From: Scenedesmus sp. PABB004
Lineage: Eukaryota
DNA length: 64,000 nt
Assembly: GCA_014905635.1 (NCBI GenBank)
Contig: JABVCE010000048.1
Coordinates: 1 to 64,000 of the forward strand
Direction: 5' to 3'
Numbering within the stretch: the stretch's first letter is position 1; each line of letters opens with the position of its first letter. The notes under the pieces are model-generated. The model saw nothing but the letters and a program-made list of their open reading frames with translations. It searched no databases and was not told the origin of the DNA. The position numbers and the translations under genes were made by a program. Positions 726-27,496 of this stretch are shown in pieces.

Positions 726-760
726 AATAACTCCATCGGCCCGCCAACGCGGCTACCGTC

Positions 761-3700: not shown

Positions 3701-4885
3701 AAGAACGCCTTCCTCCAAGGCAACCTCGAGGAGGAGGTGTGGATCAGCCAGCCCGAGGGCTACGACGACGGCTCCGGCCGCGCGTGCCGCCTGATCAAGG
3801 CGCTCTACGGCCTCAAGCAGGCCCCGCGCGCGTGGCACTCGCGCCTGCACGAGGAGCTCACCAAGATGGGCTCCGCGCCGTCCAAGGCCGACGCATCGCT
3901 CTACGTCGGCACCTCCGGCGCGTACATCCTCATCTACGTCGACGACATCCTCATCATTGCGCGCAACTGCGCGCTCGCCGAGTCGGTCAAGGCGGAGCTC
4001 TTTGCCGCCTTCAAGACCCGCGACCTCGGCGAGGTGAGCCAGTACCTCGGCATGCACATCACGCGCGACCGCATCAACAAGACCATCAAGATCACCAACG
4101 AGAAGATGGTGACCGAGCTCGTCTTCAAGTACGGGCTCGCCGACTGCGCGCCCCGCGACATCCCCGTGAGCCTCGGCACCAAGCTCACCAAGGACAACGG
4201 CGACCCGCTCGACACCGCGGCCTACCCCTACACGTCGCTCGTGGGAGCGCTCCTCTACCTCTCCATCACGGTGCGCCCCGACATCGCCTTTGCGGTGAGC
4301 GCGTTGACACGCTTCATGTCCTGCCCCACGACCGTGCACTGGGGCGTGGCCAAGGGCGTGCTCCGCTACCTGGCCGGCACCACCAACATTGGCATCATCT
4401 ACGGCGGCATCAAGGGCAGCCTGGACCTCAACGGCATGTGTGACTCGGACTACGCGGCCGACCTCGACACGCGCCGCTCGACCACCGGCTACGTCTTCAC
4501 CCTCAACGGCGGCGCAATCACCTGGTCCAGCAAGAAGCAGCAGACCGTCGCAGCCTCCACCACCGAGGCCGAGTACATGGCCGCCTCCGCTGCGGTCAAG
4601 GAGGCCCTCTGGCTGCGCAAGCTCATGAGCGACCTCAAGGTCAACATCGGCGCCATCGACATCCTCTCCGACAACCAGGGTGCGATCAAGCTGCTGCGCA
4701 ACCCCGTGTCCTCGCAGCGCTCGAAGCACATTGACGTCGCGCACCACTTTGCGCGCGAGCGCGTGGCCCGCGGCGAGGTCACGTTCCACTACGTGCCCAC
4801 GGCCGACAACATCGCCGACGCGCTCACCAAGCCGCTGGCGCTGTCCAAGTTTGTGGCGTGCCGCACCGGCATGGGCATGGTGTGA
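761..4885 (+). pseudogene. copia gag-pol polyprotein, frameshifted (decay or consensus indel errors)
   Basis: FTGSNYVTW gag start, CYYCKKPGHFIGEC, WFIDSG protease, WHARLGH..CEPC, VRTDNGSEY, PEQNGTAER, LYGLKQAPRAW, IYVDDILI, DSDYAADLDTRRSTTGY, RSKHID; frame changes near 1435, 1720-1950, 2865-2885 and 3290. Confidence 0.92.
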
Positions 4886-8200: not shown

Positions 8201-11200
8201 CGGCGCAGCCCGCGGCCGGGCAGCATGTTGGAGCCGCGCACCTCCGCTCCGCAGGGGCGGCGGGGCAGGGGAAACGGCGCACGGCAGCGCCGCGCCGCGG
8301 CGCCGGCGAGCGGCGCGCGCGCGGGCGGCGCGCGGCCCGCGGCGCGGCGCGGCCGCCGGCGGCCGACCTCGGCGGCGCAGCCCGCGGCCGGGCAGCATGT
8401 TGGAGCCGCGCACCTCCGCTCCGCAGGGGCGGCGGGGCAGGGGAAACGGCGCACGGCAGCGCCGCGCCGCGGCGCCGGCGAGCGGCGCGCGCGCGGGCGG
8501 CGCGCGGCCCGCGGCGCGGCGCGGCCGCCGGCGGCCGACCTCGGCGGCGCAGCCCGCGGCCGGGCAGCATGTTGGAGCCGCGCACCTCCGCTCCGCAGGG
8601 GCGGCGGGGCAGGGGAAACGGCGCACGGCAGCGCCGCGCCGCGGCGCCGGCGACCGGCGCGCGCGCGGGCGGCGCGCGGCCCGCGGCGCGGCGCGGCCGC
8701 CCGCGGCCGACCTCGGCGGCGCAGCCCGCGGCCGGGCAGCATGTTGGAGCCGCGCACCTCCGCTCCGCAGGGGCGGCGGGGCAGGGGAAACGGCGCACGG
8801 CAGCGCCGCGCCGCGGCGCCGGCGAGCGGCGCGCGCGCGGGGCGGCGCGCGGCCCGCGGCGCGGCGCGGCCGCCGGCGGCCGACCTCGGCGGCGCAGCCC
8901 GCGGCCGGGCAGCATGTTGGAGCCGCGCACCTCCGCTCCGCAGGGGCGGCGGGGCAGGGGAAACGGCGCACGGCAGCGCCGCGCCGCGGCGCCGGCGAGC
9001 GGCGCGCGCGCGGCGGCGCGCGGCCCGCGGCGCGGCGCGGCCGCCGGCGGCCGACCTCGGCGGCGCAGCCCGCGGCCGGGCAGCATGTTGGAGCCGCGCA
9101 CCTCCGCTCCGCAGGGGCGGCGGGGCAGGGGAAACGGCGCACGGCAGCGCCGCGCCGCGGCGCCGGCGACCGGCGCGCGCGCGGGCGGCGCGCGGCCCGC
9201 GGCGCGGCGCGGCCGCCGCGGCCGACCTCGGCGGCGCAGCCCGCGGCCGGGCAGCATGTTGGAGCCGCGCACCTCCGCTCCGCAGGGGCGGCGGGGCAGG
9301 GGAAACGGCGCACGGCAGCGCCGCGCCGCGGCGCCGGCGAGCGGCGCGCGCGCGGGCGGCGCGCGGCCCGCGGCGCGGCGCGGCCGCCGGCGGCCGACCT
9401 CGGCGGCGCAGCCCGCGGCCGGGCAGCATGTCGGAGCCGCGCACCTCCGCTCCGCAGGGGCGGCGGGGCAGGGGAAACGGCGCACGGCAGCGCCGCGCCG
9501 CGGCGCCGGCGAGCGGCGCGCGGCCCGCGGCGCGGCGCGGCCGCCCGCGGCCGACCTCGGCGGCGCAGCCCGCGGCCGGGCAGCATGTTGGAGCCGCGCA
9601 CCTCCGCTCCGCAGGGGCGGCGGGGCAGGGGAAACGGCGCACGTCAGCGGCGCGCCGCGGCGCCGGCGAGCGGCGCGCGCGCGGGCGGCGCGCGGCCCGC
9701 GGCGCGGCGCGGCCGCCGGCAGCCGACCTCGGCGGCGCAGCCCGCGGCCGGGCAGCATGTTGGAGCCGCGCACCTCCGCTCCGCAGGGGCGGCGGGGCAG
9801 GGGAAACGGCGCACGGCAGCGCCGCGCCGCGGCGCCGGCGACCGGCGCGCGCGCGGGCGCGCGCGGCCCGCGGCGCGGCGCGGCCGCCCGCGGCCGACCT
9901 CGGCGGCGCAGCCCGCGGCCGGGCAGCATGTTGGAGCCGCGCACCTCCGCTCCGCAGGGGCGGCGGGGCAGGGGAAACGGCGCACGGCAGCGCCGCGCCG
10001 CGGCGCCGGCGAGCGGCGCGCGCGCGGGCGGCGCGCGGCCCGCGGCGCGGCGCGGCCGCCGGCCGACCTCGGCGGCGCAGCCCGCGGCCGGGCAGCATGT
10101 TGGAGCCGCGCACCTCCGCTCCGCAGGGGCGGCGGGGCAGGGGAAACGGCGCACGGCAGCGCCGCGCCGCGGCGCCGGCGAGCGGCGCGCGCGCGGGCGG
10201 CGCGCGGCCCGCGGCGCGGCGCGGCCGCCGGCAGCCGACCTCGGCGGCGCAGCCCGCGGCCGGGCAGCATGTTGGAGCCGCGCACCTCCGCTCCGCAGGG
10301 GCGGCGGGGCAGGGGAAACGGCGCACGGCAGCGCCGCGCCGCGGCGCCGGCGACCGGCGCGGCGCGCGGGCGGCGCGCGGCCCGCGGCGCGGCGCGCCCG
10401 CCCGCCCGACCTCGGCGGCGCAGCCCGCGGCCGGGCAGCATGTTGGAGCCGCGCACCTCCGCTCCGCAGGGGCGGCGGGGCAGGGGAAACGGCGCACGGC
10501 AGCGCCGCGCCGCGGCGCCGGCGAGCGGCGCGCGCGCGCGGGCGCGCGCGGCCCGCGGCGCGGCGCGGCCGCCGGCGGCCGACCTCGGCGGCGCAGCCCG
10601 CGGCCGGGCAGCATGTCGGAGCCGCGCACCTCCGCTCCGCAGGGGCGGCGGGGCAGGGGAAACGGCGCACGGCAGCGCCGCGCCGCGGCGCCGGCGAGCG
10701 GCGCGCGCGCGCGGCGCGCGGCCCGCGGCGCGGCGCGGCCGCCGGCGGCCGACCTCGGCGGCGCAGCCCGCGCCGGGCAGCATGTTGGAGCCGCGCACCT
10801 CCGCTCCGCAGGGGCGGCGGGGCAGGGGAAACGGCGCACGGCAGCGCCGCGCCGCGGCGCCGGCGAGCGGCGCGCGCGGCGGGCGGCGCGCGGCCCGCGG
10901 CGCGGCGCGGCCGCCGGCGGCCGACCTCGGCGGCGCAGCCGCGGCCGGGCAGCATGTTGGAGCCGCGCACCTCCGCTCCGCAGGGGCGGCGGGGCAGGGG
11001 AAACGGCGCACGGCAGCGCCGCGCCGCGGCGCCGGCGACCGGCGCGCGCGCGGCGGCGCGCGGCCCGCGGCGCGGCGCGGCCGCCCGCGGCCGACCTCGG
11101 CGGCGCAGCCCGCGGCCGGGCAGCATGTTGGAGCCGCGCACCTCCGCTCCGCAGGGGCGGCGGGGCAGGGGAAACGGCGCACGGCAGCGCCGCGCCGCGG

Positions 11201-14200
11201 CGCCGGCGAGCGGCGCGCGCGGCGGGCGGCGCGCGGCCCGCGGCGCGGCGCGGCCGCCGGCGGCCGACCTCGGCGGCGCAGCCCGCGGCCGGGCAGCATG
11301 TTGGAGCCGCGCACCTCCGCTCCGCAGGGGCGGCGGGGCAGGGGAAACGGCGCACGGCAGCGCCGCGCCGCGGCGCCGGCGAGCGGCGCGCGCGCGGGCG
11401 GCGCGCGGCCCGCGGCGCGGCGCGGCCGCCGGCGGCCGACCTCGGCGGCGCAGCCCGCGGCCGGGCAGCATGTTGGAGCCGCGCACCTCCGCTCCGCAGG
11501 GGCGGCGGGGCAGGGGAAACGGCGCACGGCAGCGCCGCGCCGCGGCGCCGGCGACCGGCGCGCGCGCGGCGGCGCGCGGCCCGCGGCGCGGCGCGGCCGC
11601 CCGCGCCGACCTCGGCGGCGCAGCCCGCGGCCGGGCAGCATGTTGGAGCCGCGCACCTCCGCTCCGCAGGGGCGGCGGGCAGGGGAAACGGCGCACGGCA
11701 GCGCCGCGCCGCGGCGCCGGCGAGCGGCGCGCGCGCGGGCGGCGCGCGGCCCGCGGCGCGGCGCGGCCGCCGGGCCGACCTCGGCGGCGCAGCCCGCGGC
11801 CGGGCAGCATGTTGGAGCCGCGCACCTCCGCTCCGCAGGGGCGGCGGGGCAGGGGAAACGGCGCACACGGCAGCGCCGCGCCGCGGCGCCGGCGAGCGGG
11901 CGCGCGGCGCGGCGCGGCGCCCCGCCGGCCGGCCGACCTCGGCGGCGCAGCCCGCGGCCGGGCAGCATGTTGGAGCCGCGCACCTCGCTCTCCGCAGGGC
12001 GGCGGGGCAGGGGAAACGGCGCACGGCAGCGCGCGCCGCGGCGCCGGCGAGCGGCGCGCGCGCGGCGCGGCGCGCGGCCCGCGGCGCGGCGCGGCCGCCG
12101 GCGGCCGACCTCGGCGGCGCAGCCCGCGGCCGGGCAGCATGTTGGAGCCGCGCACCTCCGCTCCGCAGGGGCGGCGGGGCAGGGGAAACGGCGCACGGCA
12201 GCGCCGCGCCGCGGCGCCGGCGACGGCCGCGCGCGGCGGCGCGCGGCCCGCGGCGCGGCGCGGCCGCCGCGGCCGACCTCGGCGGCGCAGCCCGCGGCCG
12301 GGCAGCATGTTGGAGCCGCGCACCTCCGCTCCGCAGGGGCGGCGGGGCAGGGAAACGGCGCACGGCAGCGCCGCGCCGCGGCGCCGGCGAGCGGCGCGCG
12401 GCGGCGGCGCGCGGCCCGCGGCGCGGCGCGGCCGCCCGCGGCCGACCTCGGCGGCGCAGCCCGCGGCCGGGCAGCATGTTGGAGCCGCGCACCTCCGCTC
12501 CGCAGGGGCGGCGGGGCAGGGGAAACGGCGCACGGCAGCGCCGCGCCCGCGGCGCCGGCGAGCGGCGCGCCGCGCGGGCGGCGCCCCGCGGCGCGGCGCG
12601 GCCGCCGGCGGCCGACCTCGGCGGCGCAGCCCGCGGCCGGGCAGCATGTTGGAGCCGCGCACCTCCGCTCCGCAGGGGCGGCGGGGCAGGGGAAACGGCG
12701 CACGGCAGCGCCGCGCCGCGGGCGGGCGACCGGCGCGCGCGCGGCGGCGGCGCGGCCCGCGGCGCGGCGCGGCGCCCGCGGCCCGACCTCGGCGGCGCAG
12801 CCCGCGGCCGGGCAGCATGTTGGAGCCGCGCACCTCCGCTCCGCAGGGGCGGCGGGGCAGGGGAAACGGCGCACGGCAGCGCCGCGCCGCGGCGCCGGCG
12901 AGCGGCGCGCGCGCGGGCGGCGCGCGGCCCGCGGCGCGGCGCGGCCGCCGGCGGCCGACCTCGGCGGCGCAGCCCGCGGCCGGGCAGCATGTTGGAGCCG
13001 CGCACCTCCGCTCCGCAGGGGCGGCGGGGCAGGGGAAACGGCGCACGGCAGCGCCGCGCCGCGGCGCCGGCGAGCGGCGCGCGCGCGGGCGGCGCGCGGC
13101 CCGCGGCGCGGCGCGGCCGCCGGCGGCCGACCTCGGCGGCGCAGCCCGCGCCGGGCAGCATGTTGGAGCCGCGCACCTCCGCTCCGCAGGGGCGGCGGGG
13201 CAGGGGAAACGGCGCACGGCAGCGCCGCGCCGCGGCGCCGGCGAGCGGCGCGCGCGCGGGCGGCGCGCGGCCCGCGGCGCGGCGCGGCCGCCGGCGGCCG
13301 ACCTCGGCGGCGCAGCCCGCGGCCGGGCAGCATGTTGGAGCCGCGCACCTCCGCTCCGCAGGGGCGGCGGGGCAGGGGAAACGGCGCACGGCAGCGCCGC
13401 GCCGCGGCGCCGGCGAGCGCGCGCGCGCGGGCGGCGCGCGGCCCGCGGCGCGGCGCGGCCCGCCGGCGGCCGACCTCGGCGGCGCAGCCCGCGGCCGGGC
13501 AGCCTGTTGGAGCCGCGCACCTCCGCTCCGCAGGGGCGGCGGGGCAGGGGAACGGCGCACGGCAGCGCCGCGCCGCGGCGCCGGCGAGCGGCGCGCGCGC
13601 GGGCGGCGCGCGGCCCGCGGCGCGGCGCGGCCGCCGGCGGCCGACCTCGGCGGCGCAGCCCGCGGCCGGGCAGCATGTTGGAGCCGCGCACCTCCGCTCC
13701 GCAGGGGCGGCGGGGCAGGGGAAACGGCGCACGGCAGCGCCGCGCCGCGGCGCCGGCGAGCGGCGCGCGCGCGGCCGGCGCGCGGCCCGCGGCGCGGCGC
13801 GGCCGCCGGCGGCCGACCTCGGCGGCGCAGCCCGCGGCCGGGCAGCATGTTGGAGCCGCGCACCTCCGCTCCGCAGGGGCGGCGGGGCAGGGGAAACGGC
13901 GCACGGCAGCGCCGCGCCGCGGCGCCGGCGAGCGGCGCGGCGCGCGCGGCGGCGCGCGGCCCGCGGCGCGGCGCGGCCGCCCGCGGCCGACCTCGGCGGC
14001 GCAGCCCGCGGCCGGCAGCATGTTGGAGCCGTGCACCTCCGCTCCGCAGGGGCGGCGGGGCAGGGGAAACGGCGCACGGCAGCGCCGCGCCGCGGCGCCG
14101 GCGAGCGGCGCGCGCGCGGCGGCGCGCGGCCCGCGGCGCGGCGCGGCCGCCGGCGGCCGACCTCGGCGGCGCAGCCCGCGGCCGGGCAGCATGTTGGAGC
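5260..14200. repeat. 172-bp extremely GC-rich satellite array, ~52 monomers
   Basis: CATGTTGGAGCCGCGCACCTCC recurs at 172-bp spacing (6174/6346, 6521/6693/6865, 7022/7194); monomers are highly similar. Confidence 0.98.
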
Positions 14201-14210
14201 TCTTTCTCTT

Positions 14211-14511
14211 TCGCGCGGCGCGGGGGCTGATGCCGCTGAGGCCGGCCCCTGCCGCCGCCAGCGTGGATGGCGTTTGCGCGTGATCTCTGCGCGGAGGCTT
14301 GGGGCCGGTGCACCTCGCTGCACCGATGCCCGGTGCGGCTCGCCGCACCGGAAGGGGGGTGTGCGGCCTGATCTGCTGCTGCCCCTTTGATTGCGGGGCA
14401 TCACCTGGTCTCCTTGGGCGCCCGTTGGGCGTTGGCCTCTGGCTGTGCCGTTGGGTGATGTGTGTGCCCCCTCTCGGGGGGCGCCGGGGGCGCGGTTTTT
14501 CACGAGGGGTT
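14211..14511 (+). mobile_element. Fragment of the L1-type 3' UTR, lacking its own 3' end
   Basis: Near-identical to ~26602-26901; preceded by ~10 bp of pyrimidine filler (14201-14210). Confidence 0.9.
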
Positions 14512-14701
14512 TTTTTTTTTTTTTTGTTACAACGGGTGACCAGACAAGGACCGAGGCCCAGGGGCAGCCCATTGAAAAAAGCTCCAACGGGAAGAGCGCA
14601 GCAACCCCTCGTGAAAAACCGCGCCCCGGCGCCCCCCGAGAGGGGGCACACACATCACCCAACGGCACAGCCAGAGGCCAACGCCCAACGGGCGCCCAAG
14701 G
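14510..14701 (-). mobile_element. 3' terminus (poly(A)) of an inverted, 5'-truncated L1 copy, left part
   Basis: T16 + GTTACAACGGG... is the reverse complement of ~26803-27001; the copy continues at 27002-27075. Confidence 0.92.
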
Positions 14702-14708
14702 GGGGGGG

Positions 14709-17700
14709 CTCAAGGTGGTGGCCGTCAACGTGAACGGCCTCAACCGCAAGCCCAGCCGACAGGCGTTCTTCGCCTGGCTCCTGGCCTCCCGCTACCACGT
14801 GGTCGTCCTCACAGAGACGCACGCGCAGGGCGACGGCCAGGCCCGCAGGTGGGTCCAGGGCGGGGCCGGCCCCGGCCGGCCATGGCAGGGTTCAGCATGG
14901 TGGAGCCACGGCAGCTCAGCGTCGCGGGGCGTGGGCATCCTGATCCGCGATGGCGTCGTGCCCGCTGGGGAGGCGCCGAGTATCGAGTACTGCGACACTG
15001 TAGGTAGGCTGCTGCGCGTGGGCTGGCGCACGCAGCATGGCGACCGCCTCTCGGTGCTGGGCGTTTACGCGCCGTCCGAGCGGGCAGAGCGCCCTGCGTT
15101 CTTCGCGGGGCCGTACCAGGAGGCCCTCCTGGCAGGGCCGGCGGGCGCGCTGCTGCTGGCGGGCGGCGACTTCAACTGCGTCGTCTCGCCGGCTGACGTC
15201 CAGCCCCTGCCGGGGCAGGCGGCGGCGCGGTCTGGCCGGTGCCACGGCGGCGCGGACCTCGCCCGCGCCAACGCGGCGGCGGGCGTCGTCGACGCGCTGC
15301 TGCGCGTGGCGCCGCAGCTCCGCGCGCAGCCCACGCACTACCAGCGGCGCGACGGGGCGGTGCACGGTGGCCGCATCGACGCGTGGTTCGTGGCGCAGGA
15401 GCTCGCCGACCACTGGCTGGTCGGTGCGGCGCACCACCCGCTGTGCCACAGCGACCACAGGCCGGTCAGCGTCAGCCTGCAGCGACCGGGACAGCCGCTG
15501 GCTGGGCGGCGACGCTGGACGTTCCCCAACGACCTGCTCGCCTGCGCCAGCCGCCGGGCCGAGCTCCGCGACCGTGTAGCAGCTGCCGCGCAGCAGCTGC
15601 GGGACGCAGGGCTGGACCCGGGCGAGCTGTTTGAGCAGCTCAAACAGAGTGTGCGGCGCATCGCGGCGGAGCTGCGTGCGGAGATGCGGCAGCAGGAGCA
15701 GCAGGAGCTCCGCCAGCTGCGGCACGCGCTGCGCGCAGCGCGCTGGGCGGCAGGCAGCCAGCAGTACGGCTGCCCCGAGGCCGCCGCTAACGCCCTCGCC
15801 GCAGAGCGGACGCTCGCCGCGGCGGAGGCGGCGCAGCGGCGGCAGCAGGCGGACGCTCTGGAGGCGGTATGGGACGAGTGCGGCGAGGGGCCCAGCCGCT
15901 GGTTCCACCGCCTGGGCCGCGCGCCGGGCGGCGCGCAGCCAATTCACGCGCTCGCCCGCCCGGGCCAGCCCGCCGTGCCGCTTACCTCCAGGGCAGGCAT
16001 CCAGGAGGGCGGCCGCATCATCGCCGACTTCTTCGACGCGGACGTGCCGGGCGGCATGTTCGGCGTCCGGCCGACCGACCAGCAGCAGCAGGACTGCATG
16101 CTGGACGCGCTGGACCGGCAGCTCTCGGCAGCCGAGCAGCGGGCCTGCCGCGGGCAGGACCCCGAGGGGCTGCTCACGTTCGCCGAGGCGACGGCGGCGC
16201 TGGCCAGCCTGCCGCGCGGCGCGGCGCCGGGCAGCGACGGCCTCACCTGCGAGGCCTACGCGGCCCTGTGGGAGGTGCTGGGCGAGCCGCTCGTCCAAGC
16301 CTTCAACTATCACTACCTCAACCAGGCAGCCGGCGCGCCGCAGCTCGCGGCGACGCAGCGGCTCGGGCTCATCACGCTGATCCACAAGGGCGGCCAGCCG
16401 CGCGAGGCGGTCAGCAGCTACCGCCCCATCACGCTGCTCAACACAGACACCAAGATCGCAGCCAAGGCCATCGTGCAGCGGCTCGCGCCCGCGCTCGGCT
16501 CCATCGTCGACGGCACGCAGACGGCGTTTGTGCCGGGCCGGGACATCGCCGACAACGTGCTCATGCACCTGGAGGCGATCGACCACGCGCGCGAGACGCG
16601 CGCGCCGGGCTGCCTGCTGTTCCTCGACTTTGCCAAGGCCTACGACCGCCTCGACCGCGGCTGGCTGTTCAGGTGCCTCGCGCGCATGGGCCTGCCCGAC
16701 GCAACCACGCGCTGGGTCCGCCTGCTGCTCGCAGGCACGCGGGCGCGCGTCGCCTTCAACGGCGGCCATGTCAGCCGCGAGTTCAGCGTGGCGTCGGGCT
16801 GCGCGCAGGGCAGCCCGCTCAGCCCGCTGCTGTATGTGCTGGCGGCGCAGCCGCTGGCGGCCATGTGCCGGCGCGTGCAGCGGCAGCCCGGTTTTGCCAG
16901 CCTGCAGCTGCCCGGCGGCGCAGGGCCGGCGCCCTGCTGCCACCAACACGCAGACGACACCACCCTGCACGCAGCGTCAGTGGAGAGCGCCAAGCGGCTG
17001 CTGGACGGCGCCGTCGCGCCGTTCTGCCTGGCCAGCGGCGCGCAGCTCAACCTGGCCAAGTGCAAGGGCATGCTGCTGGGCGACCACCCGGCGCTGCAGC
17101 TGCAGCCGGATGGCAGCGGGCAGCTGGTCGAGTGCAACACGGGCGTGTGCTTCCCGGACACAGAGCAGGCGCCGATCAGGCACCTGGGCGTGCTGCTCTC
17201 TGCCACCGGCGTCGAGCGGCACGCGGCGCAGCTTTACCGCGAGCGGCTGCGCACCATCACCTGCCGCATCGCGCACTGGTCGCGGTACGCGCTCACGCGC
17301 CCGGGCCGCCGGCACGTTGCGCGCCAGGTGCTCGCGGCCTGCGTGGGCTGGCACGCGCAGTTTGTGCCGGTGCCGGCCGACCTCCTGCGCCTCATCCAGC
17401 GGCGCGTCACCGCCTACATCGTCGGCAACTGGTGCATCCGCGAGAGCGACAACCGCATTATCAGGCAGGTTCCGCGGGCGGCCATCGCGTGCCTGCCCGC
17501 GAGCATGGGCGGCGAGGCGCAGGTCGACGTCGCGGCCTTCACCACGGCAATGCTGGCCAAGACGGCCGCCAGGCTGCTGCACCCGGTGGGGGCGGCCTGG
17601 AAGCCACCCGCGGCGGCGCGCTTCGCGCGCGCGCTGCCTGGCCGGGGCACCGCCGCCCTCGTGCAGGGCACCGCGCTGGAGCTGCGGGCGCAACTGCCGT

Positions 17701-19567
17701 GGCGGTGGGGCGCGATCGCCTGCGCGTTTGCGGCTCTCGGCGTGCACCGGGTGATCCCCCACGGCAGCATGACCGTGGAGCAGATCAGGGTGGAGGCCCT
17801 GGTGGGCAACTGCAGCGTCGGCGCGGCCCTGGGCGGCGCGCGCATCGCGTCGCTCGAGGACCTGCCCGCGGAGCTGCGCAGCGACAGCCTCGGGCAGGCG
17901 GCGCCGCGCCTGCCGTGGCGGCCGGCCGCCGATGGCGTCGTCATGCCGGGTGAGTGGCAGCAGGCGCTCGCGCGCAGCGGGCCGAGCGCGCCGGGTTGGC
18001 AGGCGCTGCGGCCCAGCGCGGCGCCGCCGTCGCCGGGCGGCGGCGTGGTGCAGCAGCCCCAGCAGCCGCTGGCGGCGCTGCCGGTGGAGCAGCCGCCGCA
18101 GCCGCCGCCGCCGCCGCCCGCCGTGCGGTGGGTACGGCGGTGGGCGCTGGGCGCGGCAGCGGCGAGCTTCTTCGAGGTGGGGCCTGACAGCAGGCTCCGC
18201 ACCGCCGAGCCCCCGCCCGAGATAGTCGCGGCGGGGGGGTGGGAGGACTGCTGCGTGGTGGACGCGGCGCAGGCGCCGCGGCCAGCGGCGGGCGCGCAGC
18301 GCGCGGCGGCCGGAGCGCCCGGGGCAGCGGCGCCGGCGGAGCAGCCGGAGATGCACAGCAGGGCGCGGCGATGGTTCCTCGTGGGCTTTTGGCCTGACGT
18401 CCGCGTCGACCCCTCCGTGTGGGGGCTCGGGCACGCGGCCACGGTCATGCAGTTTACGGTGCGCGGCGCGACCCTGCGGCTGCTGCAGCTGCGCTGCGCG
18501 CGCGAGGTCACGCCGGCAGGGGGCTGGACGCCCGGCGTTGGCTGCGTGCCGGGCCTCTGGCGCGCCGGCTACGGCCAGGCATGCCCGGCCAGCGCCATCG
18601 CGCGGCGGGAGGCGGGCCAGAAGCGCAGCTGGGCGGAGCGGCAGCGAGCCGCGACGCCAGACCCGGAGCCTGGGCTGCCGGCGTGGCAGAAAGTCTCGCC
18701 CCCGCGGCGCCACGTCATGGAGCGCGTCGGGCCGGCGGCGGCCGCTGCCGCCGCGGCGCGGCGCGAGGAGCAGGAGCGGCGGCGGGAGCAGCAGTTGGAG
18801 CAGCGCAGGACCCTGGTTCGGGAGCCGGCGGCCAACGACCTCGTCGACCCGCTCACTGGTGCGACTGCGCCGCCGCGCGCCGGCGAGCGCGCGGAGCCGC
18901 CCGCCTGGGCCGCCTGCTACGCGCGCGCGCAGCAGGCGCGCATGCCGCGCGCCCTGCGACACTTTGGCTGGAGCCTGCTGCACGGCGGGGTGCGCGTCAG
19001 CGGCGACAGGGTCTTCTCTTACCAGCGCGCGGCGCCGGAGCTGGCGGAGCTGGCGTGCCCGCACCCGCTCTGCCGCGCGCAGCAGCAGCCGCCGCTGGAG
19101 ACGCTCGGCCACGTCCTCGGCGGATGCCCCGTGGCGGCGGCGGTGCTGCAGTGGTTTGCTCACCTCTGGGCGCGGCTGCAGCCGGGCTTCCCGAGCGCGC
19201 CGCCCCCGCCCAGGGTGATGCTGGCGGACGACTTTGCCAGGTCGGGCGTCGCGCCGGAGCTGCAGCAGCTCTGGACGCACCTCCGCCTGCTGCTACTGCG
19301 CGCCCTGCTCGCCGCGCGCGCGCGGCACGGCGGCGGCCGGCCCGGGCACGCGCCTGTGGCGGCGATTCGCATCTTTGTGTACTCGGTGCGCGACGCAATC
19401 GTGCTGGACTGGCGCAAGGCAGCGATGGACGTGCGCGCGCTGGCGGGCGTGCCGCGCTCCTGGCTGCCGGGCTCCGGCAAGGAGCTCACTCGGGCAGATT
19501 TCGAACGCCGGTGGTGCCACCGAGGGGTCATCGCGCGCACGGGCCAGCACGGGGGCCGCTTCACAAT
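14709..19567 (+). CDS. L1-type ORF2: APE endonuclease, reverse transcriptase, CCHC finger; C-terminus continues at 26170-26293
   Basis: LKVVAVNVNGL, LTETH, VYAP, GGDFNC, RIDAWF, SDHRPV; PGSDGL, YRPITLLNTD, QTAFVPGR, LDFAKAYD, GCAQGSPLSPLLY, HADDT; CPHPLC..ETLGHVLGGC. Open for ~4.9 kb with no initiating ATG. Confidence 0.93.
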
Positions 19568-22500
19568 AGATATATAGAGCGCTGCAATAGCCTGGGCATC
19601 TCGCTCAACGCGTCTATCAACATCGCTGCGTCCAACAACTTGGGGTGGCTCCCGGGAGGCCATTGCGTGCCGAAAAGCCAGGACCAGCGCCACACCAGAC
19701 CCTATTTCGGCCCGCACGCGCAGCGCCGGAGCGCCGGCCCGCGTGCCGCAGCGCCGGAGCGCCGGAGCCGCGCGAGCCCGCGCGGAGCCAGTCGGCCGTG
19801 GCGGGCTGCCCGCCAACGGCTAGTTCCGTTCGGCCGCACCGCGCGTCCGTTCGGCCGCGCGCGCGCCCGTGCGGGCGCGCGCGCCTGCTCAGAGCGCGTT
19901 TTCGTGAGGCTGGAGACGTGAGGGCAGCCGTGGCGGGCCCGCCGCGCAAGCGGCGGGCCTGCAGCGTGCGGCAGCAGCAGCGCAGCGACCACGGCAGCGA
20001 CAGCGGCGACGGCAAGGCGACTGACGGCGTGCCCAGCGCGATGCGGACCCCTTGACCTTCAAGGGGGCTGCACTGCGCCGGAGGCGCACGCTGTCGGTCA
20101 CGCTGGAGCAACGGCAGCAGCGGCGGCAGCGGCAGCGGGCGGGTGCCCCGAGAGCGACAGCGCTGGCGCAGGAGACGTCTGGCCCGCCAGCGGCAGCGTG
20201 CACACCCCTAAGACGCGCCACGCCGCCGGACCCAGCCGGACTCCCCTGCACAGCGCAGCCGCTAGGCGGGGCGCTCGCCTGCCAGCCGCGGCCGCCGCTG
20301 CAGCTCGCCCAGCACCTGCCAACGCCCACGCTCACCGCGCGCACGCGGCTGCCCCACCCTCCAGCTACTGACACACCATGCAGGACCACAGGGACGCAGG
20401 AACGGAGGCGGCTGCAGCCGGCGTCAGGGCCACAGCGGCCACGCCGGGCTCGCCTGCCGTGCGCCCCTGTGGTCCTGGCGTCGGCGGGCCGCTCTACGTG
20501 TGCGTGGGCGGCGCGTGGCGGACCATCACCAGCGACAAGCTCGGGGTTGGGCCGTCCGCCGCCGGGCCCGCACCGGGGCCGGACTACGCCTGGGTGGAGG
20601 GGGCCTGGCGCCGCGCGGCGGCCCTGCCGACCCCGGCGGGGCCGCCGGAGCGGCGTGCTGGGGGCGCGCGCCTGCCCGGCAGCACTGGCCGCGCGCGCGC
20701 TGCACCCACCGCCGCACCGGCCCACGCGCCGCCTGCCACCGCCGCCCGCCGCCGCACGACAGGTCATGCCCAAGGCCGCCCCGCGGCGGTCGCGCAGCGT
20801 GCGGCCCCGCCTTGTGCGCTGGGGCTCTCTGCCCTGGTGTTTGGCGTCGGCCCCGAGGATGCCATCGACGGCGGCAACCCCGCGCGCAGCAAGATCTCCG
20901 AGGCCGTCCGGCGGGCTATTGCAGCGGGGGCTGATGCCGACACGCTCACGTTGGCGGCGGCCGCGCTGGCCGCGGGGCGCATGCAGTGGATGGGCAGCAC
21001 GCGTGCGGCGCAGCGCCGCCGCGTCATGCGTGTGCGCCTGCAGCGCATCCCCAGCGCCCACCGCGCTGCGCTGCTCCAGCACCGCGCGGCGCTGGCGGCG
21101 GCGCTGCGCGCGCAGCTCGGCTGGCGCCTCGTGGTCTGCGAGGACGGCCGCGCCCTGCCTGCTCAGCCGCCCCTGCCCACAGACGCCAACCCCTACGCAG
21201 CGCTCGCCGATGCTGCCGCCGCCGAGGCGGCGCCGGACAGCGGCGCCGAGTGCCGCGCGGCTCCCCCGCGCCTGCACGGCAGCATTGTGTGCAAGCACTT
21301 TGCTGGCCACGGCGACTTCTACGGCGTGGTGCTCAAGATCCGCGGCGCCCGCGGCCCCTACGCCTACCGTGTGCACTACACCGACGGCGAGGACGAGACG
21401 ATGACGGAGGAGGAGGCGCGGGGCCACCTTGCCGGCAGCGTACCAGCAGCGCACGCGGTGCACGCGCTGCGCGCGCGCCTGCTGCCGCCGACGCCCGCAG
21501 ATGGCGTGGTCGTCAAGAGGTACTTCCGGTCGCACCGGCAGCACTTTTACGGCGTGCTCACCATCCGGCCGCCCTTCTTTGCCGTAGCCTACACCGACGG
21601 CGACGCGGAGGACATGGACGCCGACGAGGCTGCGCGGCACGCGGTCGCCGACGCGCCCGAGCTCGCGCCGCACTGGGCCGGGCTCGCCGCGCGCGGCGCG
21701 CGCGCTGACCTCTACCCCCTTGCCGCCGCCGCGGCCGCTCAGCTCGCGCTTGGCGCCGACGCGCCCGAGGCGGCGCCGGCCGCTGCGGCCGCCGCCCCGG
21801 CTGCCGGGGCGGCGGCCGCCGACGTGTCGCTCGCGCCGGAGCGCGTCCCGGCGGCCGACAACGCAGCGCGGGCGCGCCGCGCGTGTCCCGCCTACACCGA
21901 CCGCCGCATGCGCCGCCGCCACACAGGCCTCGTACGCGCCGCCAACCTGGCGTGGGCCCGCGCGGGGCTCCGCGTGGCGTGCATCAACGTCTGCGGCATG
22001 ACCAGGCTGAAGGCTGCCGAGCTCGCCGCTGCTACGACGGCGCTCTGCATCGACATCCTCGCCGTCGTCGAGACCTGGGAGGGCCACCCCTGCGTCGCCC
22101 ACGAGCTGCCTGGCTACACCTTCATCGGCAAGCCGCGCAGCCGGGGGCAGGGCGGGGGCGTGGGCTTTTACGTCGCGCGCGCGCTGGCCCCGCTCGTGCG
22201 CGCGCCCGCCGACACGCAGCTGCCCGAGGCGCTCTGGCTGGAGCTGCGCCGCGGCGGCAGCGCCGCGACCGCGCGGCCGGCGTCTGTCGGCGTCGTCTAC
22301 CTGCCGCCGGCGTCGCTGGAGAGCGCCGCGCTGCGGGCCGACACCTACGCGCAGCTGCAGACGGACATCCAGAGGTTCCAGGAGCGGGGCGCGGTGCTGG
22401 TGCTGGGCGACTTCAACAGCCGCGTGGGCAGCAGCGCGCCAGCGGAGCAGCAGGCGGACCAGCCGCCGGCGCGCATCGGGCAGTGGGGGAGAGCGGCGCG

Positions 22501-25500
22501 CCCGACGCGGCGGGCCAGGCCCTGCTGGCCATGCTCGACGCCACTGACCTGTACGCCCTCAACGGGCGCGCGCCCACCGCCACCGGCCTGCCTGCCTACA
22601 CCCGCGCCCGCCTCGTGTGCGGCGCTGACGGCACGCACACCGAGCAGTGCTCGGTGCTCGACTACGTCCTCGCGCCCGCGGCGTGGGCGCTCCCCTCCAG
22701 CCGCGGCCCGGCGCCCTGCGCCCTGACCGTGGCCGACGATCGGCGCATCACCAAGTCTGACCACCTGCTGCTGTGGACCTGCCTGCCTCACCCCGCCGCC
22801 CGCGCGCGCGCCCCCGCGGGCCTGCGCCGCCGCGTCGCGCGCACCGACCTGCTCAAGCCGGTCCCGGGGCAGCGCGATGCGGGGCATGCCGATGCCTACC
22901 GCGCGGAGCTCGCCGACGCGCTGGCCGACTATGCCGACGACGTGGCTGCCCTCGCCGACCAGGTGGGCAGCGCGCTGCTGCCGGCGCGCGAGGCGTGCGC
23001 GCGCGCCAAGGCTGCGCTGTGCGATGCCATTTGGACGGCGGTCGATGGCAGCGTCGGCTACAGGGAGGTGCGCTCGGGCGGTGGCGGCGGCAGCGCCGCC
23101 GCCGCGCGGCGCATCTTCACGCCGGCGGTCCAGGCCGCCGTGCAGGCGCGCCGCGACGCTGATGTCGCGCTGGCGGCCGCCCGGGGGCGGCCGCCGGCGG
23201 CGACGCTGACGCCGCCCCTGCCCAGGCTGCTGCCGAGCTTGCCGCCGCGCGGGACCAGCTGTGCGCCGCACAGCGGGCTGTCAAGTCCGCCGTGGCGGCT
23301 GCGCGCGCAGCGGAGCTCGGCCGCCGCGTTGACGCGGTTCACGCCCGTCACGCGGCAGGCGACGGCAAGGGCATGTGGGAGCAGCTGCGCCAGATTGCCG
23401 GCACTGCCAGGCGGGGCCCTGGCGGCCCCGCAGCGCTGCGCGCTGCTGCCAGCACTGGCATGGTTGTGGGCGAGCAGCAGATCGCAAACGCCCTGGCAGC
23501 GCAGTACGCCAGTGTCAGCGACCCCGCGGCGTTTGCTGCCGGGGCAGACTTTGACGAGCAGTGGCGCGAGCAGGTCGAGGCGGACGTGGCGCGCTACCGC
23601 GCCGCCGCCTCTGACCCCAGCGGCAGCGACAGCGAGCAGGACCCCCTCAGCGCCGACATCACCGCCGCCGAGGTCGCAGCCCAGGCGCAGGCCCTCTCCA
23701 ACAACAAGGCCCCCAGCCCGCTCGACGGCGTCACCAACGAGCTGCTCAAGTACGGCGGCGAGCCCCTTTGGGGCGCGCTGGCCGCCTTCTTCAACCTGCA
23801 GTTCACCCTGGAGACCAAGGCCCAGACCGCCGGCGTCATCACCCCGATCTACAAGCGCGGCGACCCGACCGACCCCGCCAACTACCGCCCCATCACGCTC
23901 GGCTCCGCGGTGGACAAGCTCTACAACCTCGTGCTCAACAAGCGCCTCACTGACCACCTTGAAGGCCACGGCCTGCTGCACGACGCGCAGCAGGGCTTCC
24001 GGCCCGGGCGCAGCGCCGCCGACAACATCTTCATGCTCACCTCCTGCCTCGACGCCCGCGCCGCGCAGGGACTCGACACCTACGTACTGTTCCTTGACGT
24101 CGCCAAGGCCTACGACACCGTGTGGCGCTCCGGCCTGCTTCACAACCTCTGGCGCGTGGGCGTGCGCGGCCGCCTGTTCCGCGTGCTCGCCAACATGACC
24201 GACCGCACGCGCAGCATGGTGCGGCACCGCGGCGCGCTGTCAACAGCCTTTGAGCCGGGCCTTGGGTGGGAGCAGGGCGACACGCTGGCGACTACGATGT
24301 TCAACGTCTTCATCAACGCCGTGCTCCAGGAGGTGTGGGCCGCCTGCCCGGGCGTGCCGCTGCCCGCCGCGCCCGCGCCCGCGCCCGCCGCGCCGCCCGC
24401 GCCGCCCGCCGGCGCGGCGCCACCCGCGCCCGAGCCAGGCGCCGCCGACGACAAGCTGGTCGCGCTCCTCTTTGCGGACGACTGCGCGAGCCTTGCGGCC
24501 GGCCCGGCGGAGATGCAGCAGCTCCTTGGCGCCACGCGCGCCGCGCTCGCCCGCTGGCGGCTCAAGGCCAGTGTCAGCTCGGCGGACGCGTCCAAGACAG
24601 CGGTGATGGTGGTGCCGGGGGGCCGCACCCGGCATGCCGTCGCTGCGGCGGCTGCTGCCGCGGCGGCCTACCAGTGGTCGTGGGGCGCGGAGCAGGTGCC
24701 GCGCGTCACTGGGTACAGGTACCTGGGCGCGTGGCTGACGGCCGACCGCAGCGCCCGCAGCTGGGACGCCCACCTGCAGCGCCGCAAGGCTGCTGCGGAC
24801 AAGGCGTTCTGGGCTCAGTCGGCGGTGCTGCGTGAGCGGCGCCTGCCGCTGCGCCTGCGCCTGCTCACGCTCACGGGCGTGGTGCAGCCTGTGTTGACGC
24901 ACGCGGCCCAGGTCTGGGCCCGCCCCACGGTCGAGCGCCGCGCGGAGCTCGACTCGTGGCAGGCGGGGCTGGTGGCGCGCATGACCGGGTGCCCGCCCAA
25001 CGTGTCGCACGCGTGCCTGCAGCAGGAGCTGGGCATCACCCCGCTGCATGTCGTCTGCGACACCCTCATGCTGCGCTACTGGCACCGCCTGCGCGCCCTG
25101 CCAGCCGACCGCCTGTTGCGCCGTGTTGCCGACGCCTGGCCCGCCACGCCGTGGTGGAAGGGCGTGGGCGGCCTCCTGCGGGACTACGGCGTCGATGTTG
25201 TGGCTACTGCTGGCATGAGCCGCAACGAGTTTGCTGCTCACCTTTGCGACCTTGCTGGCGACCACATCGATGGCGCCTGGGAGGCCGCCGCCGGCCGCGG
25301 CTCGGTGGCGCGGCGCTACCGGGAGGCCTTTGGCAGCGGCGTCTTCTCTACTCGCTCCTTCACGCGCCGCGCCGGCGTGCCGTGCGCCCGGGATTACCTG
25401 GGCTGGCTCTGCAGCCCCGGCGGCCCGCGGCGCGGCCGGCCGGCGGCGCTGCTCATGCGCCTGCGCATGGAGTGCCTCCCGCTGCGCGCTGCCCACAGCC

Positions 25501-26161
25501 ACGCGCGCCGGGGGAGTCGATCGCGCAGCAGGCGGAGCGAGAGCGCTGCCCCTGCTGCGCTGCGCGCGCGCCCGAATCGGCCGCGCACTTTCTCTTTGAG
25601 TGCGGCGCGCCCGGCCGCCCTGCGCGCCTCGTTGCGCTGCTTGCGGACCTCCGTGCCAGCGGCGGGGGCGCGCATGCTGGCGCGCTGGCTGCGCACCTGC
25701 GTGCGGCTGGTGTTGAGATGGCGGCTAGCGGCAGCCAGGAGCTGGAGGCTGGAGCTGGCGGCGGCGGCAGCGGCAGCGGCAGCGACCCCGGCGTCGTGGC
25801 TAGCGCGGCGGCCCCTCGGGCTGCTGACGCAGGCGCGGCGGTCAGCATCAGCGATAGCGGCGTCACGGCTGATACGGCGGCCCCTCGGGCTGATGATGTC
25901 AGCGCGGCGGTCAGCGTCAGCAGCGTCTCTGCTGGTGCGGCGGCCCCTCGGGCTGCCGTTACCGGCGCGGCGAGTCGGTGTGCAGCACTGGAGCAGGCTC
26001 GGCGTTATCTGCTTGGTGACCTGCTGCAGGATCAGCTTGCTGTTCACTCTGTGGCAGATTATGTGATGGACATCTGGAAGATGCGGGACACCGTCCTTAA
26101 GGGGCGCGGGACCAATGGGCGCGAGCCTGTGGTGTAACTATCTTTATCTTTATCTTTATCT
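19568..26161 (+). mobile_element. RTE/RTEX-like LINE nested in the L1 ORF2
   Basis: TSD TTCACAAT at 19560-19567 and 26162-26169; tail of TATCTT repeats (26139-26161) right after the ORF stop. Clade inferred from the tail type and architecture. Confidence 0.88.
20378..26137 (+). pseudogene. LINE polyprotein: N-terminal region, 2x Tudor-like, APE, RT, CCHC finger; frameshifted
   Basis: CINVCGM, VVETW, GGGVG, VYLPP, LGDFNSRVG, VLDYVL, SDH; YRPITL, QQGFRPGR, FLDVAKAYDTVW, QGDTLA, LFADDC, YRYLG; CPCC..ESAAHFLFEC. Frame changes near 22490, 23180-23300 and 25510-25620. Confidence 0.88.
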
Positions 26162-26169
26162 TTCACAAT

Positions 26170-26248
26170 GGAGTTCCGGCTCACCGCAGCGGGCGTGCCG
26201 GCGCTGCCGGCGGCGCCGGCGCTGGCCCCGCCGGCGGTGCAGGACCCC

Positions 26249-26279
<31 letters not shown>

Positions 26280-26293
26280 AGCGCGGCGGCTAG
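26170..26293 (+). CDS. Displaced C-terminus of the L1 ORF2
   Basis: Removing the nested LINE and one TSD copy restores the frame ...GGRFTMEFRLTAAGVPALP...AQRGG*. Confidence 0.8.
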
Positions 26294-27001
26294 CTGCAGG
26301 GGCCGGGGGGGTCCGCGGCCGGGCTTGCTGCGACCCCGGCTGGCTGCGTGTCGCGCCTCTTCTGCGGCGTGCAAGGTTGGGCGGTGTCCCCCCGTGCCGC
26401 GGGGCTGGTGTCTGCGTGTTTGTGTTTGTCGTCGCGCGGCGAGGGGGCTGCAGCCGGTGGGGCCGGCCCCTGGCGCCGCCGGCGTGTTTGGCGGCTTGGC
26501 GTGCTGCCTGCCCGGTGGGGCGGCTTTCTCATCGGTGTGCGGCTTTCTCAGGGGTTTTTGCAGCAAAGCCAACTGCTGCCCCCTGGTGTGTGCGTGTGTC
26601 GTCGTGCGGCGCGGGGGCTGATGCCGCTGAGGCCGGCCCCTGCCGCCGCCAGCGTGGGTGGCGTTTGCGCGTGATCTCTGCGCGGAGGCTTGGAGCCGGT
26701 GCACCTCGCTGCACCGATGCCCAGTGCGGCTCGCCGCACCGGAAGGGGGGTGTGCGGCCTGATCTGCTGCTGCCCCTTTGATTGCGGGGCATCACCTGGT
26801 CTCCTTGGGCGCCCGTTGGGCGTTGGCCTCTGGCTGTGCCGTTGGGTGATGTGTGTGCCCCCTCTCGGGGGGCGCCGGGGCGCGGTTTTTCACGAGGGGT
26901 TGCTGCGCTCTTCCCGTTGGAGTTTTTTTTTCAATGGGCTGCCCCTGGGCCTCGGTCCTTGTCTGGTCACCCGTTGTAACAAAAAAAAAAAAAAAAAAAA
27001 A

Positions 27002-27075
27002 GGGCGCCCAAGGAGACCAGGTGATGCCCCGCAATCAAAGGGGCAGCAGCAGATCAGGCCGCACACCCCCCTTCC
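27002..27075 (-). mobile_element. Right part of the inverted truncated L1 copy
   Basis: Reverse complement of ~26741-26814; resumes where 14510-14701 stops, sharing the 12-bp TSD. Confidence 0.9.
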
Positions 27076-27496
27076 AGCCGCGCACCTCCGCTCCGCAGGG
27101 GCGGCGGGGCAGGGGAAACGGCGCACGGCAGCGCCGCGCCGCGGCGCCGGCGACCGGCGCGCGCGCGGGCGGCGCGCGGCCCGCGGCGCGGCGCGGCCGC
27201 CGGCGGCCGACCTCGGCGGCGCAGCCCGCGGCCGGGCAGCCTGTTGGAGCCGCGCACCTCCGCTCCGCAGGGGCGGCGGGGCAGGGGAAACGGCGCACGG
27301 CAGCGCCGCGCCGCGGCGCCGGCGAGCGGCGCGCGCGCGGGCGGCGCGCGGCCCGCGGCGCGGCGCGGCCGCCCGCGGCCGACCTCGGCGGCGCAGCCCG
27401 CGGCCGGGCAGCATGTTGGAGCCGCGCACCTCCGCTCCGCAGGGGCGGCGGGGCAGGGGAAACGGCGCACGGCAGCGCCGCGCCGCGGCGCCGGCG
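27076..27496. repeat. Continuation of the 172-bp satellite (~2.4 monomers)
   Basis: Same monomer, resuming at AGC|CGCGCACC in register with the break at 14200; the rare CAGCCTGTTGG variant occurs at both ~13500 and ~27237. Confidence 0.97.

Follow-up and report, generated by a model that had tools for sequence, protein, structure and literature searches.

A retrotransposon found repeatedly inside copies of itself raises the question of whether it chooses such sites or whether they are simply the sites at which its insertions persist. This question is posed by a 64,000-nucleotide (nt) stretch of contig JABVCE010000048.1 (assembly GCA_014905635.1) of the green alga Scenedesmus sp. PABB004, referred to below as the window. 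Between positions 14201 and 27075 of the window, three copies of the 3′ untranslated region (3′UTR) of one long interspersed nuclear element (LINE), designated E2, are stacked inside a single monomer of a 172-bp satellite. The stack is probably best read as a three-layer nest built by target-primed reverse transcription of the L1-like E2, which would prefer its own 3′UTR and/or the chromatin of the satellite or of silenced transposable elements (TEs) as a target.

Structure of the nested cluster

The large insert, A, occupies 14702–27001 on the + strand. It is 12.3 kb long, ends in an A21 tail, and splits copy B into two halves. It is a composite of two different LINE families and not one L1, with E1 on its 5′ side and E2 on its 3′ side, and the stacked 3′UTR belongs to the 3′ unit, E2, alone. 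The E2 3′UTR and tail of the insert (26138–27001, + strand; UTR 26138–26980, A21 26981–27001) served as the reference to which pieces B and C were each aligned. Copy C (14201–14509, + strand) is an internal piece of the E2 3′UTR that corresponds to reference positions 26602–26901, is truncated at both ends and lacks a poly(A) (300 aligned, 4 mismatches, 1 gap); its first ~10 nt (CTCTTTCTCTTT) do not align to the E2 3′UTR. Copy B lies on the − strand. Its 3′ half (14510–14701; reference 26803–26996) begins with a T16 run at 14510–14525 that directly adjoins copy C (14509/14510) and continues with the last ~175 nt of the E2 3′UTR (192 aligned, 1 mismatch, 1 gap). Its 5′ half (27002–27075; reference 26741–26814) consists of the right copy of a target-site duplication (TSD) followed by UTR positions 26741–26802 (74 aligned, no mismatches, no gaps), and its 5′-truncated end adjoins the satellite directly (27075/27076). 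A repeat finder paired 14211–14489 of copy C with 26602–26880 at 99% and, in inverted orientation, 14575–14701 with 26803–26929 (99%), 14510–14580 with 26926–26996 (100%) and 14350–14426 with 26999–27075 (99%).

The two halves of copy B share exactly 12 reference bases (26803–26814), namely GGGCGCCCAAGG, which is present at 14690–14701 and again at 27002–27013. Removal of one copy of this 12-mer leaves copy B as one uninterrupted alignment (254 aligned, 1 mismatch, 1 gap), which identifies GGGCGCCCAAGG as a genuine TSD rather than a coincidental 12-mer. The two nested junctions fall ~80 and ~170–180 bp upstream of the start of the poly(A) in the 3′UTR. The whole stack splits a single satellite monomer: the left part of the array ends in ...CATGTTGGAGC at the cluster and the right part restarts in phase with AGCCGCGCACC, the flanks overlapping by just 3 bp (AGC). 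For comparison, contigs of four independent metagenome runs (X1, X3, X6 and X7) were used, and three of the four contain the intact monomer as a joint 14197->27076 with three shared letters (X1, 2; X6, 2; X7, 1). This joint represents the empty site as found in other monomers, and says nothing on polymorphism at the cluster locus. Many joints in X3 had sides of 20–25 nt, were probably GC-rich cross-matches from other organisms, and were set aside. Contig record 25 of X7 spans only 14536–14691.

A sequence-only reading of this stretch had proposed a stack of three copies of one 3′UTR, a TSD around the large insert, an inverted copy whose poly(A) abuts a third copy on the + strand, nested junctions within the last ~200 bp of the 3′UTR, and a position inside one satellite monomer. 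All of these are borne out by the alignments given above, in which C, the halves of B and the reference in A agree at 98.7–100%. The same reading took the large insert for a single L1 lying within an inverted copy of its own 3′ end; this holds for the nesting in the E2 3′UTR and fails as regards a single L1, as two LINE families are present.

Divergence among the copies is low. C differs from A at 4 of 300 positions and B from A at 1 of 254, no difference separates C from B over 161 positions, and identity among the three is at least 98.7%. These values, together with an open reading frame (ORF) that is probably intact, point to copies that are all young and to E2 as a recently active family. 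Outside the cluster, no further copies of the UTR, E1 or E2 were found within the window, and the E2 3′ terminus had no exact match in a scan of Joint Genome Institute (JGI) metagenome contigs. The E2 3′UTR contains an internal 92-bp duplication (26412–26503 and 26583–26673, 82% identity). Metagenome contigs differ from it by a 6-nt deletion at 26416 and a 24-nt insertion at 26489; the E2 3′UTR is therefore length-polymorphic between copies or strains.

Probable assembly of the nest

The cluster could have been assembled in three steps. First, a 5′-truncated E2 copy, C, would have inserted into a satellite monomer. Second, the 5′-truncated copy B would have been primed at a nick in the sense strand of the 3′UTR of C (...GAGGGGTT|GCTGCG) and would have come to lie in inverted orientation, with loss of the last ~100 bp of C and its tail. 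Third, a nearly full-length RNA, A, would have been primed at a nick in the sense strand of the 3′UTR of B (...GGGCGCCC|GTTGGG), again inverted, generating the 12-bp TSD. The cDNA of A would be the minus strand with a primer ending in ...CCTTGGGCGCCC-3′, which would place the nick in the B sense strand between GGGCGCCC and GTTGGG. The cDNA of B would be the plus strand; the sequence before its T-run reads ...CACGAGGGG(TT), and the nick in the C sense strand would lie after GGGGTT, the TT pairing with the poly(A). As each newcomer would be inverted relative to its target, the pattern +/−/+ would follow. The satellite is back in phase even though the last ~100 bp and the tail of C are absent, so that the deletion in the second step would have ended within C's own copy of its TSD.

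The alternative that survives best concerns C and B, which may instead be products of one complex event. The polymerase, having reached the poly(A) end of the second strand of B, would have moved onto a different E2 RNA at an internal site containing U and extended for ~300 nt to yield C, and A would have arrived later. Such an event accounts for a satellite break that has only a 3-bp overlap and no loss, for which the two-event model needs a lucky deletion end-point. The identity of C and B over their 161-bp overlap was also counted in its favor, but A has the same sequence in this interval, so that the identity is uninformative. Against a single event, the overlap means that C and B share 161 nt of UTR and are not adjacent parts of one template, and only 2 nt (UU) would have been available to pair with the A-run primer though a U9 run lies 22 nt away. 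The structure also recalls twin priming, the mechanism of L1 5′ inversion, in that inverted and direct segments of one element stand side by side at one target. Twin priming, however, places neighboring stretches of a single RNA side by side and leaves the poly(A) on the outside, whereas in this cluster the tail lies inside, at the border of C with B, and part of the UTR is present in both segments. Classical twin priming was rejected for C and B because of this internal poly(A), which likewise counts against the single complex event. Separate insertions of C and B are somewhat the likelier course, and the one-event account as a whole is doubtful.

Coding capacity of E2

The E2 ORF extends on the + strand from an ATG at 20378 with an in-frame stop ahead of it to a stop at 26137, and comprises ~1920 codons when three frameshifts are read through. 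It encodes a conserved N-terminal region, two Tudor modules, an apurinic/apyrimidinic endonuclease (APE, ~21950–22765), a reverse transcriptase (RT, 23859–24575) and a CCHC motif (25547–25603). Residue 1–2 of E2 aligns with residues 1–7 of the full-length relatives P0114, P0113 and P0110, and the ORF is therefore N-terminally complete. The Pfam family Exo_endo_phos was detected with E 1.1e-5 in the window frame and 1.3e-7 in gene model P0015, and RVT_1 with E 3.2e-24, which places the APE N-terminal to the RT in one ORF. The CCHC motif that follows the RT reads CPCCAARAPESAAHFLFEC, and its columns are nearly invariant in a 17-sequence alignment. E2 displays L1-type traits in its A21 and T16 tails, the 5′-truncated copies B and C and the 12-bp TSD; as for its placement in L1, the sole support is that NCBI labels P0015 and P0073 'LINE-1 reverse transcriptase-like'. 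Gene models derived from E2 are present on four different contigs, a distribution that speaks neither for nor against the strict localisation described for Zepp. The C-terminal coding region also holds three tandem units of ~69 bp (25754–25954).

The frame changes near 22489, at 23187–23250 and near 25500, and a G5 run is present at each of these sites (22480–22484, 23183–23187 and 25505–25509). Contigs of X1 and X6 carry an extra G, giving six G's, after 22484 and after 25509; the third site has no contig row. P0073, a gene model at a second locus, skips the same three places. The frameshifts are probably assembly errors caused by systematic under-calling of homopolymers. Because under-calling is the simplest reading of frameshifts at G5 runs, the ORF of ~1920 codons is probably intact, and this reading matters for judging the activity of the E2 family. 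Homopolymer under-calling in the assembly may also affect other genes.

Tandem Tudor modules

Upstream of the endonuclease, E2 encodes tandem PTM/DIR17-like Tudor modules (21272–21634, + strand; module 1 at 21272–21421, module 2 at 21494–21634). The Pfam profile PF21743 (PTM/DIR17-like Tudor) matched E2 with 32.0 bits against a cut-off of 27.2 bits. A phmmer (HMMER) search of the 151-residue Tudor region against 1.84 billion representative proteins at E≤0.001 returned 36 matches, 30 of which contain PF21743, often in several copies. Many of these PF21743-bearing proteins are chromatin proteins, and the partner domains found among them are SET, Myb, AP2, PHD-bromodomain, RNA-dependent RNA polymerase (RdRP) and Helitron helicase. 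An AlphaFold2 (AF2) model built from a 13-row alignment consists of two four-stranded barrels, each followed by a helix (mean predicted local distance difference test score, pLDDT, 75.3; predicted template-modelling score, pTM, 0.49). Its best look-alikes in the PDB are tandem Tudor domains (TTDs), with the BAHCC1 TTD in complex with H4K20me1 (E 3e-4) ahead of SETDB1 and 53BP1. The conserved aromatic and acidic columns of PF21743 (F19, F25, D47 and others) are present in both E2 modules, where they may form an aromatic cage for methyl-lysine or methyl-arginine. As the sequence-only reading had remarked, no chromodomain was found in E2; a tandem Tudor histone-reader module is present instead.

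A profile hidden Markov model (HMM) of the module was built for this analysis and applied to the collected LINE proteins. It matched 18 of 90; every match belongs to the E2 clade, and the 14 E1-clade proteins gave none. Of the long E2 relatives, which share 44–55% RT identity with E2, 15 of 16 were matched and P0052 was missed. The HMM includes the query modules; the three near-identical Scenedesmus models carry no weight, and it is the 15 relatives that do. Precomputed Pfam domains list PF21743 in P0111, P0113, P0117 and P0118. Judged by these profile matches, the tandem Tudor module is a clade feature of the E2 relatives. A search of the ESM Atlas with the Tudor and APE part returned only generic endonuclease clusters (score 0.80). 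The module is a candidate tether to methylated histones, and it provides the chromatin-targeting alternative with a concrete candidate. PTM/DIR17-like Tudor domains were also observed C-terminally in a Helitron-like protein of 2363 residues, which has Helitron_like_N and PIF1 helicase domains, and in an RdRP protein (P0087, P0094), and mobile elements other than this LINE clade may thus have captured Tudor domains as well.

Targeting or chance

At least two independent target-primed insertions have entered a target of less than 600 bp made up of the family's own 3′ end, and no E2 insertion is present in the neighboring 9.4 kb of satellite or in the other ~50 kb of the window. That the stacking is non-random is well supported: random integration is very unlikely because so small a target was hit at least twice while no copy stands elsewhere in the window. 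The sequence-only reading had considered the family self-targeting or chromatin-targeting. The part of this claim that stands is the non-random stacking, which either form may underlie. The mechanisms that remain are recognition of the 3′UTR sequence by the endonuclease or the ribonucleoprotein (RNP) and tethering by the Tudor modules to the chromatin of the satellite or of silenced copies. They are compatible with each other, and they are not separable here because there are only two junctions, which lack a common motif.

A preference of this kind has to be distinguished from a bias in retention. If E2 integrated near-randomly and only those insertions survived that fell into dead DNA (satellite or older TEs) of a gene-dense genome, nests would form passively. 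The surroundings lend this view some support, since housekeeping genes begin within ~6 kb of the right edge of the satellite, which makes the repeat island one of few neutral sites, and a Copia element likewise sits at its left edge. However, the target provided by C and B is smaller than 600 bp and lies alongside 9.4 kb of satellite that is equally neutral. Copies that are at least 98.7% identical have also left selection little time to sieve insertions, and both later insertions are in the last 200 bp of the 3′UTR, each on the sense strand of its target. Retention bias is thus an unlikely explanation of the nest.

Two loci of distant relatives bear on whether the habit extends beyond E2. Both were found among nine loci examined, come from one family and have 44–56% identity to the E2 RT. 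At the first (L001, 3548–4727), the stop codon is followed after ~600 bp by an inverted piece of the C-terminal region of the same element. At the second (L008, 4618–5700), a 5′-truncated copy with 97% identity to L001 adjoins a C-terminal piece of a diverged copy with 78% identity. These loci give a hint, at the level of sequence, that a nesting habit may be common to distant relatives of E2.

Several points speak against a nest formed by target preference. First, the evidence comes from one cluster with two nested junctions, and a clear motif common to the two inferred nick sites was not found by eye. Second, the C/B junction requires either that ~100 bp of target were deleted up to a point only a few bp from the original flank, or that internal priming of an unusual type took place. 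Third, among the matches listed (32 of 2672 pieces, four runs), no contig bridges any of the five junctions. Fourth, at least one other E2 fragment lies next to a host domain (NUDIX) in gene model P0063, and therefore not every E2 copy need sit in satellite or nest; L001 and L008, for their part, are short-read metagenome contigs and possibly chimeric at repeats. Fifth, with respect to the Tudor modules, the Foldseek match is weak, with one hit at E≤0.001 and template-modelling (TM) scores of 0.2–0.37, low values that arise because two small modules are loosely oriented. Pfam at E≤0.01 makes no Tudor call in P0034, P0035, P0048 and P0052, and the Tudor in relatives missed by Pfam is seen only by alignment and by the HMM built partly from the query.

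Two LINEs in one insertion

The insert at 14702–27001 holds two separate endonuclease and RT units, whose RT identity is ~31–32%. E1 (14702–19577, + strand) is a LINE of another family with one open frame of 1627 codons, which encodes an APE (~14727–15458), an RT (~16383–17192) and a long C-terminal region; the NCBI label on its relatives is 'Transposon TX1'. It starts with a G7 run right behind the TSD, and its 5′UTR and ~10 codons are absent. The loss amounts to only this much because the relatives start ~16–18 residues ahead of the endonuclease and the alignment with P0005 runs from residue 11 of that protein. The C-terminus of E1 is complete, as P0003 and P0005 align through 19574. The junction region between the two units (19578–20377, + strand) consists of a remnant of the E1 3′UTR and the E2 5′UTR, with the exact boundary not placed. 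It contains no A-run, no Rfam family (E≤0.1), no tRNA and, in its three longest + frames, no Pfam domain. Loose contig ends in X1 at 20326, 20352 and 20508 were of no use for placing the E2 5′ end. A single 12-bp TSD surrounds both units, and E1 and E2 therefore arrived as a single cDNA.

A second locus repeats this arrangement. In P0073, which lies on a different contig of 1.84 Mb and belongs to a 4-member cluster, residues 1–56 correspond to the E1 C-terminus at 19218–19385 (98%), and E2 follows from 20789 (98–99%). E1 is thus upstream of E2 at both loci with a visible E2 5′ region, which belong to the same annotated assembly. This recurrence suggests a propagating composite rather than a one-off. 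P0015 is uninformative on the adjacency, as its E2 part begins only at 21119. Its unrelated N-terminal 62 residues have no match to the Copia element of the window, and the idea of a Copia link between the loci was abandoned. The E2-like relatives showed no E1-like unit upstream, sequence on that side being present at just two of the nine loci (L003 and L008).

The cluster locus also has a public gene model. P0109, a 3146-aa 'transposon TX1 protein' that spans 14700–25472 of the window and is annotated on a 107-kb contig, is identical to the window frame at 51 of 54 sampled 30-mers with the same offsets, and on this sequence match it is the model of this locus. It splices the E1 ORF (to 19385) onto the E2 ORF (from ~20384) and skips the frameshifts. 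As a protein, P0109 is an annotation artefact, a fusion of two unrelated LINEs.

The template of A would have been a chimeric RNA or cDNA of 12.3 kb with E1 upstream of E2. It could have been produced by read-through transcription of a master locus in which E1 lies upstream of E2, the transcript being retrotransposed by means of the E2 3′ end. Alternatively, an RT could have switched from the 5′ end of an E2 RNA to an E1 RNA, and the chimera could have been copied later. Either source would serve, and neither is ranked above the other. Template switching by the L1 RT is known to yield chimeric retrocopies (e.g., U6-L1), and 5′ transduction by L1 also occurs. The E1 and E2 composite resembles such products in having two RNA-derived segments in the same orientation, a poly(A) only at the 3′ partner, no internal tail and one TSD. 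Unlike chimeric L1 retrocopies, it joins two autonomous LINEs from different families, has a 5′ partner of 4.9 kb that is nearly complete, and recurs as an adjacency at a second locus.

It is also conceivable that E1 is a site-specific Tx1-like LINE that inserted at the 5′ end of the resident E2 after A had landed, in which case the composite was not transposed as a unit. The label on the E1 relatives would fit this idea, and adjacency at a second locus would be expected if E1 targets the E2 5′ region. However, the E1 5′ end lies directly on the TSD of A, nothing of the E2 5′ region is left at 14701/14702, and neither a tail nor a TSD of E1's own is present at 19578–20377. Furthermore, this region contains no small-RNA gene or other known Tx1-type target, and further E1 copies occur in gene models that include host domains, on contigs of Mb size (P0004). 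A later insertion of E1 is accordingly improbable, and transposition of A as one composite is preferred. An assembly artefact, in which the junctions would be mis-joined reads of different E2 copies or satellite arrays on a small repeat-rich contig, is very improbable: the locus does lie on a 107-kb contig of an assembly with homopolymer errors and has no bridging contig among the matches listed (32 of 2672 pieces), but an exact 12-bp TSD with perfectly overlapping reference copies, poly(A) or poly(T) tracts precisely where the junctions are expected and a satellite restart in phase with a 3-bp overlap are unexpected from mis-joined reads.

Comparison with other elements

Nesting of L1 elements in clusters was already known from green algae. 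Statements on the mechanism of Zepp rest here on the summaries of later papers. Zepp inserts in a nested fashion into existing copies and forms tandem arrays mostly of 3′ ends (PMC8226300, summarising Higashiyama 1997), and ZeppL has been defined by phylogeny of the endonuclease and RT (PMC8226300). In Coccomyxa, Zepp forms nested clusters, strictly one per chromosome; the element has two ORFs, RT and Gag-like, and no satellite was reported in or near the clusters (PMC3446292). E2 resembles Zepp (Chlorella vulgaris and Coccomyxa subellipsoidea C-169) and ZeppL-1_cRei (Chlamydomonas reinhardtii) in that all are GC-rich L1-type LINEs of green algae with self-insertion and clusters of 5′-truncated 3′ ends (PMC8226300, PMC3446292).

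The likeness drawn here is one of behavior compared with published descriptions; no matches named Coccomyxa or Chlamydomonas appeared in the E2 protein searches. Several differences were noted. First, E2 has one ORF, whereas Zepp is described with two (PMC3446292); no ORF1-like domain was found upstream of E2, the 800 bp upstream being without a frame that contains a Pfam domain. Second, the E2 nest lies inside a satellite monomer, whereas no satellite is reported for Zepp clusters (PMC3446292). Third, the orientation of the E2 copies alternates (+/−/+), in contrast to the tandem Zepp arrays (PMC8226300). Fourth, the E2 cluster is small (13 kb) and, unlike Zepp, includes an unrelated LINE. Fifth, E2 bears a tandem Tudor, and the Zepp and ZeppL papers searched make no mention of Tudor. 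The Zepp-like behavior that the sequence-only reading had assigned to the cluster thus applies to nested insertion giving 3′ ends and not to array orientation. The same reading had credited ZeppL with a chromodomain; this found no backing, the word being absent from the Zepp and ZeppL papers searched.

With respect to the reader domain, the closest parallels are chromoviruses and Gypsy-10_Ec32 of Ectocarpus, which has a C-terminal Tudor. They and E2 have in common a transposon-encoded reader of the royal family, proposed to direct integration to particular chromatin. Chromoviruses and Gypsy-10_Ec32 are long terminal repeat (LTR) elements with the reader at the C-terminus of the integrase, whereas E2 is a non-LTR element that uses target-primed reverse transcription and has two Tudor modules N-terminal to the APE. 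The host of Gypsy-10_Ec32 is a stramenopile and that of E2 a green alga. The Tudor-bearing Ectocarpus Gypsy was presented as the first TE with a Tudor domain to its authors' knowledge (PMC12477816), and in the literature searched this Gypsy lineage is the only transposon for which such a domain is described. On Tudor domains in non-LTR elements or Zepp, nothing relevant was found in the literature searched, which was partly judged by titles. Relative to that literature, two features are new, namely a Tudor reader in a non-LTR element and a recurrent two-LINE composite with one TSD; the sequence evidence for both is solid, and their functional meaning is put forward conditionally.

In several green algae, self-nesting L1 clusters are presumed to constitute the centromeres, and the Tudor reader is a conserved candidate for the step in which the target is found. 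A Tudor-bearing LINE clade in many environmental algae would mean that this solution evolved independently in non-LTR elements. We tentatively suggest, as a possibility and not as the expected outcome, that E2 represents a green-algal L1 clade that steers integration by an acquired tandem Tudor into satellite or TE chromatin, possibly centromeric, and that in this alga it spreads joined to E1, as a two-LINE composite whose 5′ end and promoter come from E1. If this is true, LTR elements guided by a chromodomain would have in E2 their first non-LTR counterpart.

Genomic setting

The left part of the 172-bp satellite array (5260–14200) contains 52.4 units with a GC content of ~88% and a higher-order period of 343 bp, which represents a dimeric higher-order repeat with 96% matches. 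The right part (27076–27496) contains 2.4 units, so that the cluster lies 2.4 monomers from the gene-side edge of the repeat island. The monomer is nucleosome-sized, and the array sits between the Copia element and housekeeping genes. The monomer length, the higher-order period and the enrichment in TEs are circumstantial hints toward a centromeric repeat. The Ty1/Copia LTR retrotransposon (~731–4882, + strand) encodes gag, pre-integrase, integrase, SH3-like and RVT_2 domains and ends near the left edge of the satellite. The window begins in or near this element, and the repeat island may reach further left. To the right of the satellite, ordinary genes begin within ~6 kb; they encode phosphoglucomutase (PGM), a NatA auxiliary subunit, a BPI-like protein, a cyclopropane-fatty-acid synthase and a citrate-type transporter.

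The GC content of the window is 67–88% in 2-kb bins. Its proteins match proteins annotated under Scenedesmus sp. PABB004 at 91–100%. Seventeen DNA runs share sequence with the window, all of them freshwater or unspecified metagenome contigs, and no RNA run is among those listed. The 7-mer GTTGGAG is present at the end of the left satellite flank (14193–14199) and again in the E2 3′UTR (26917–26923), directly before the U9 run; its recurrence may be due to chance or may reflect microhomology used in integration.

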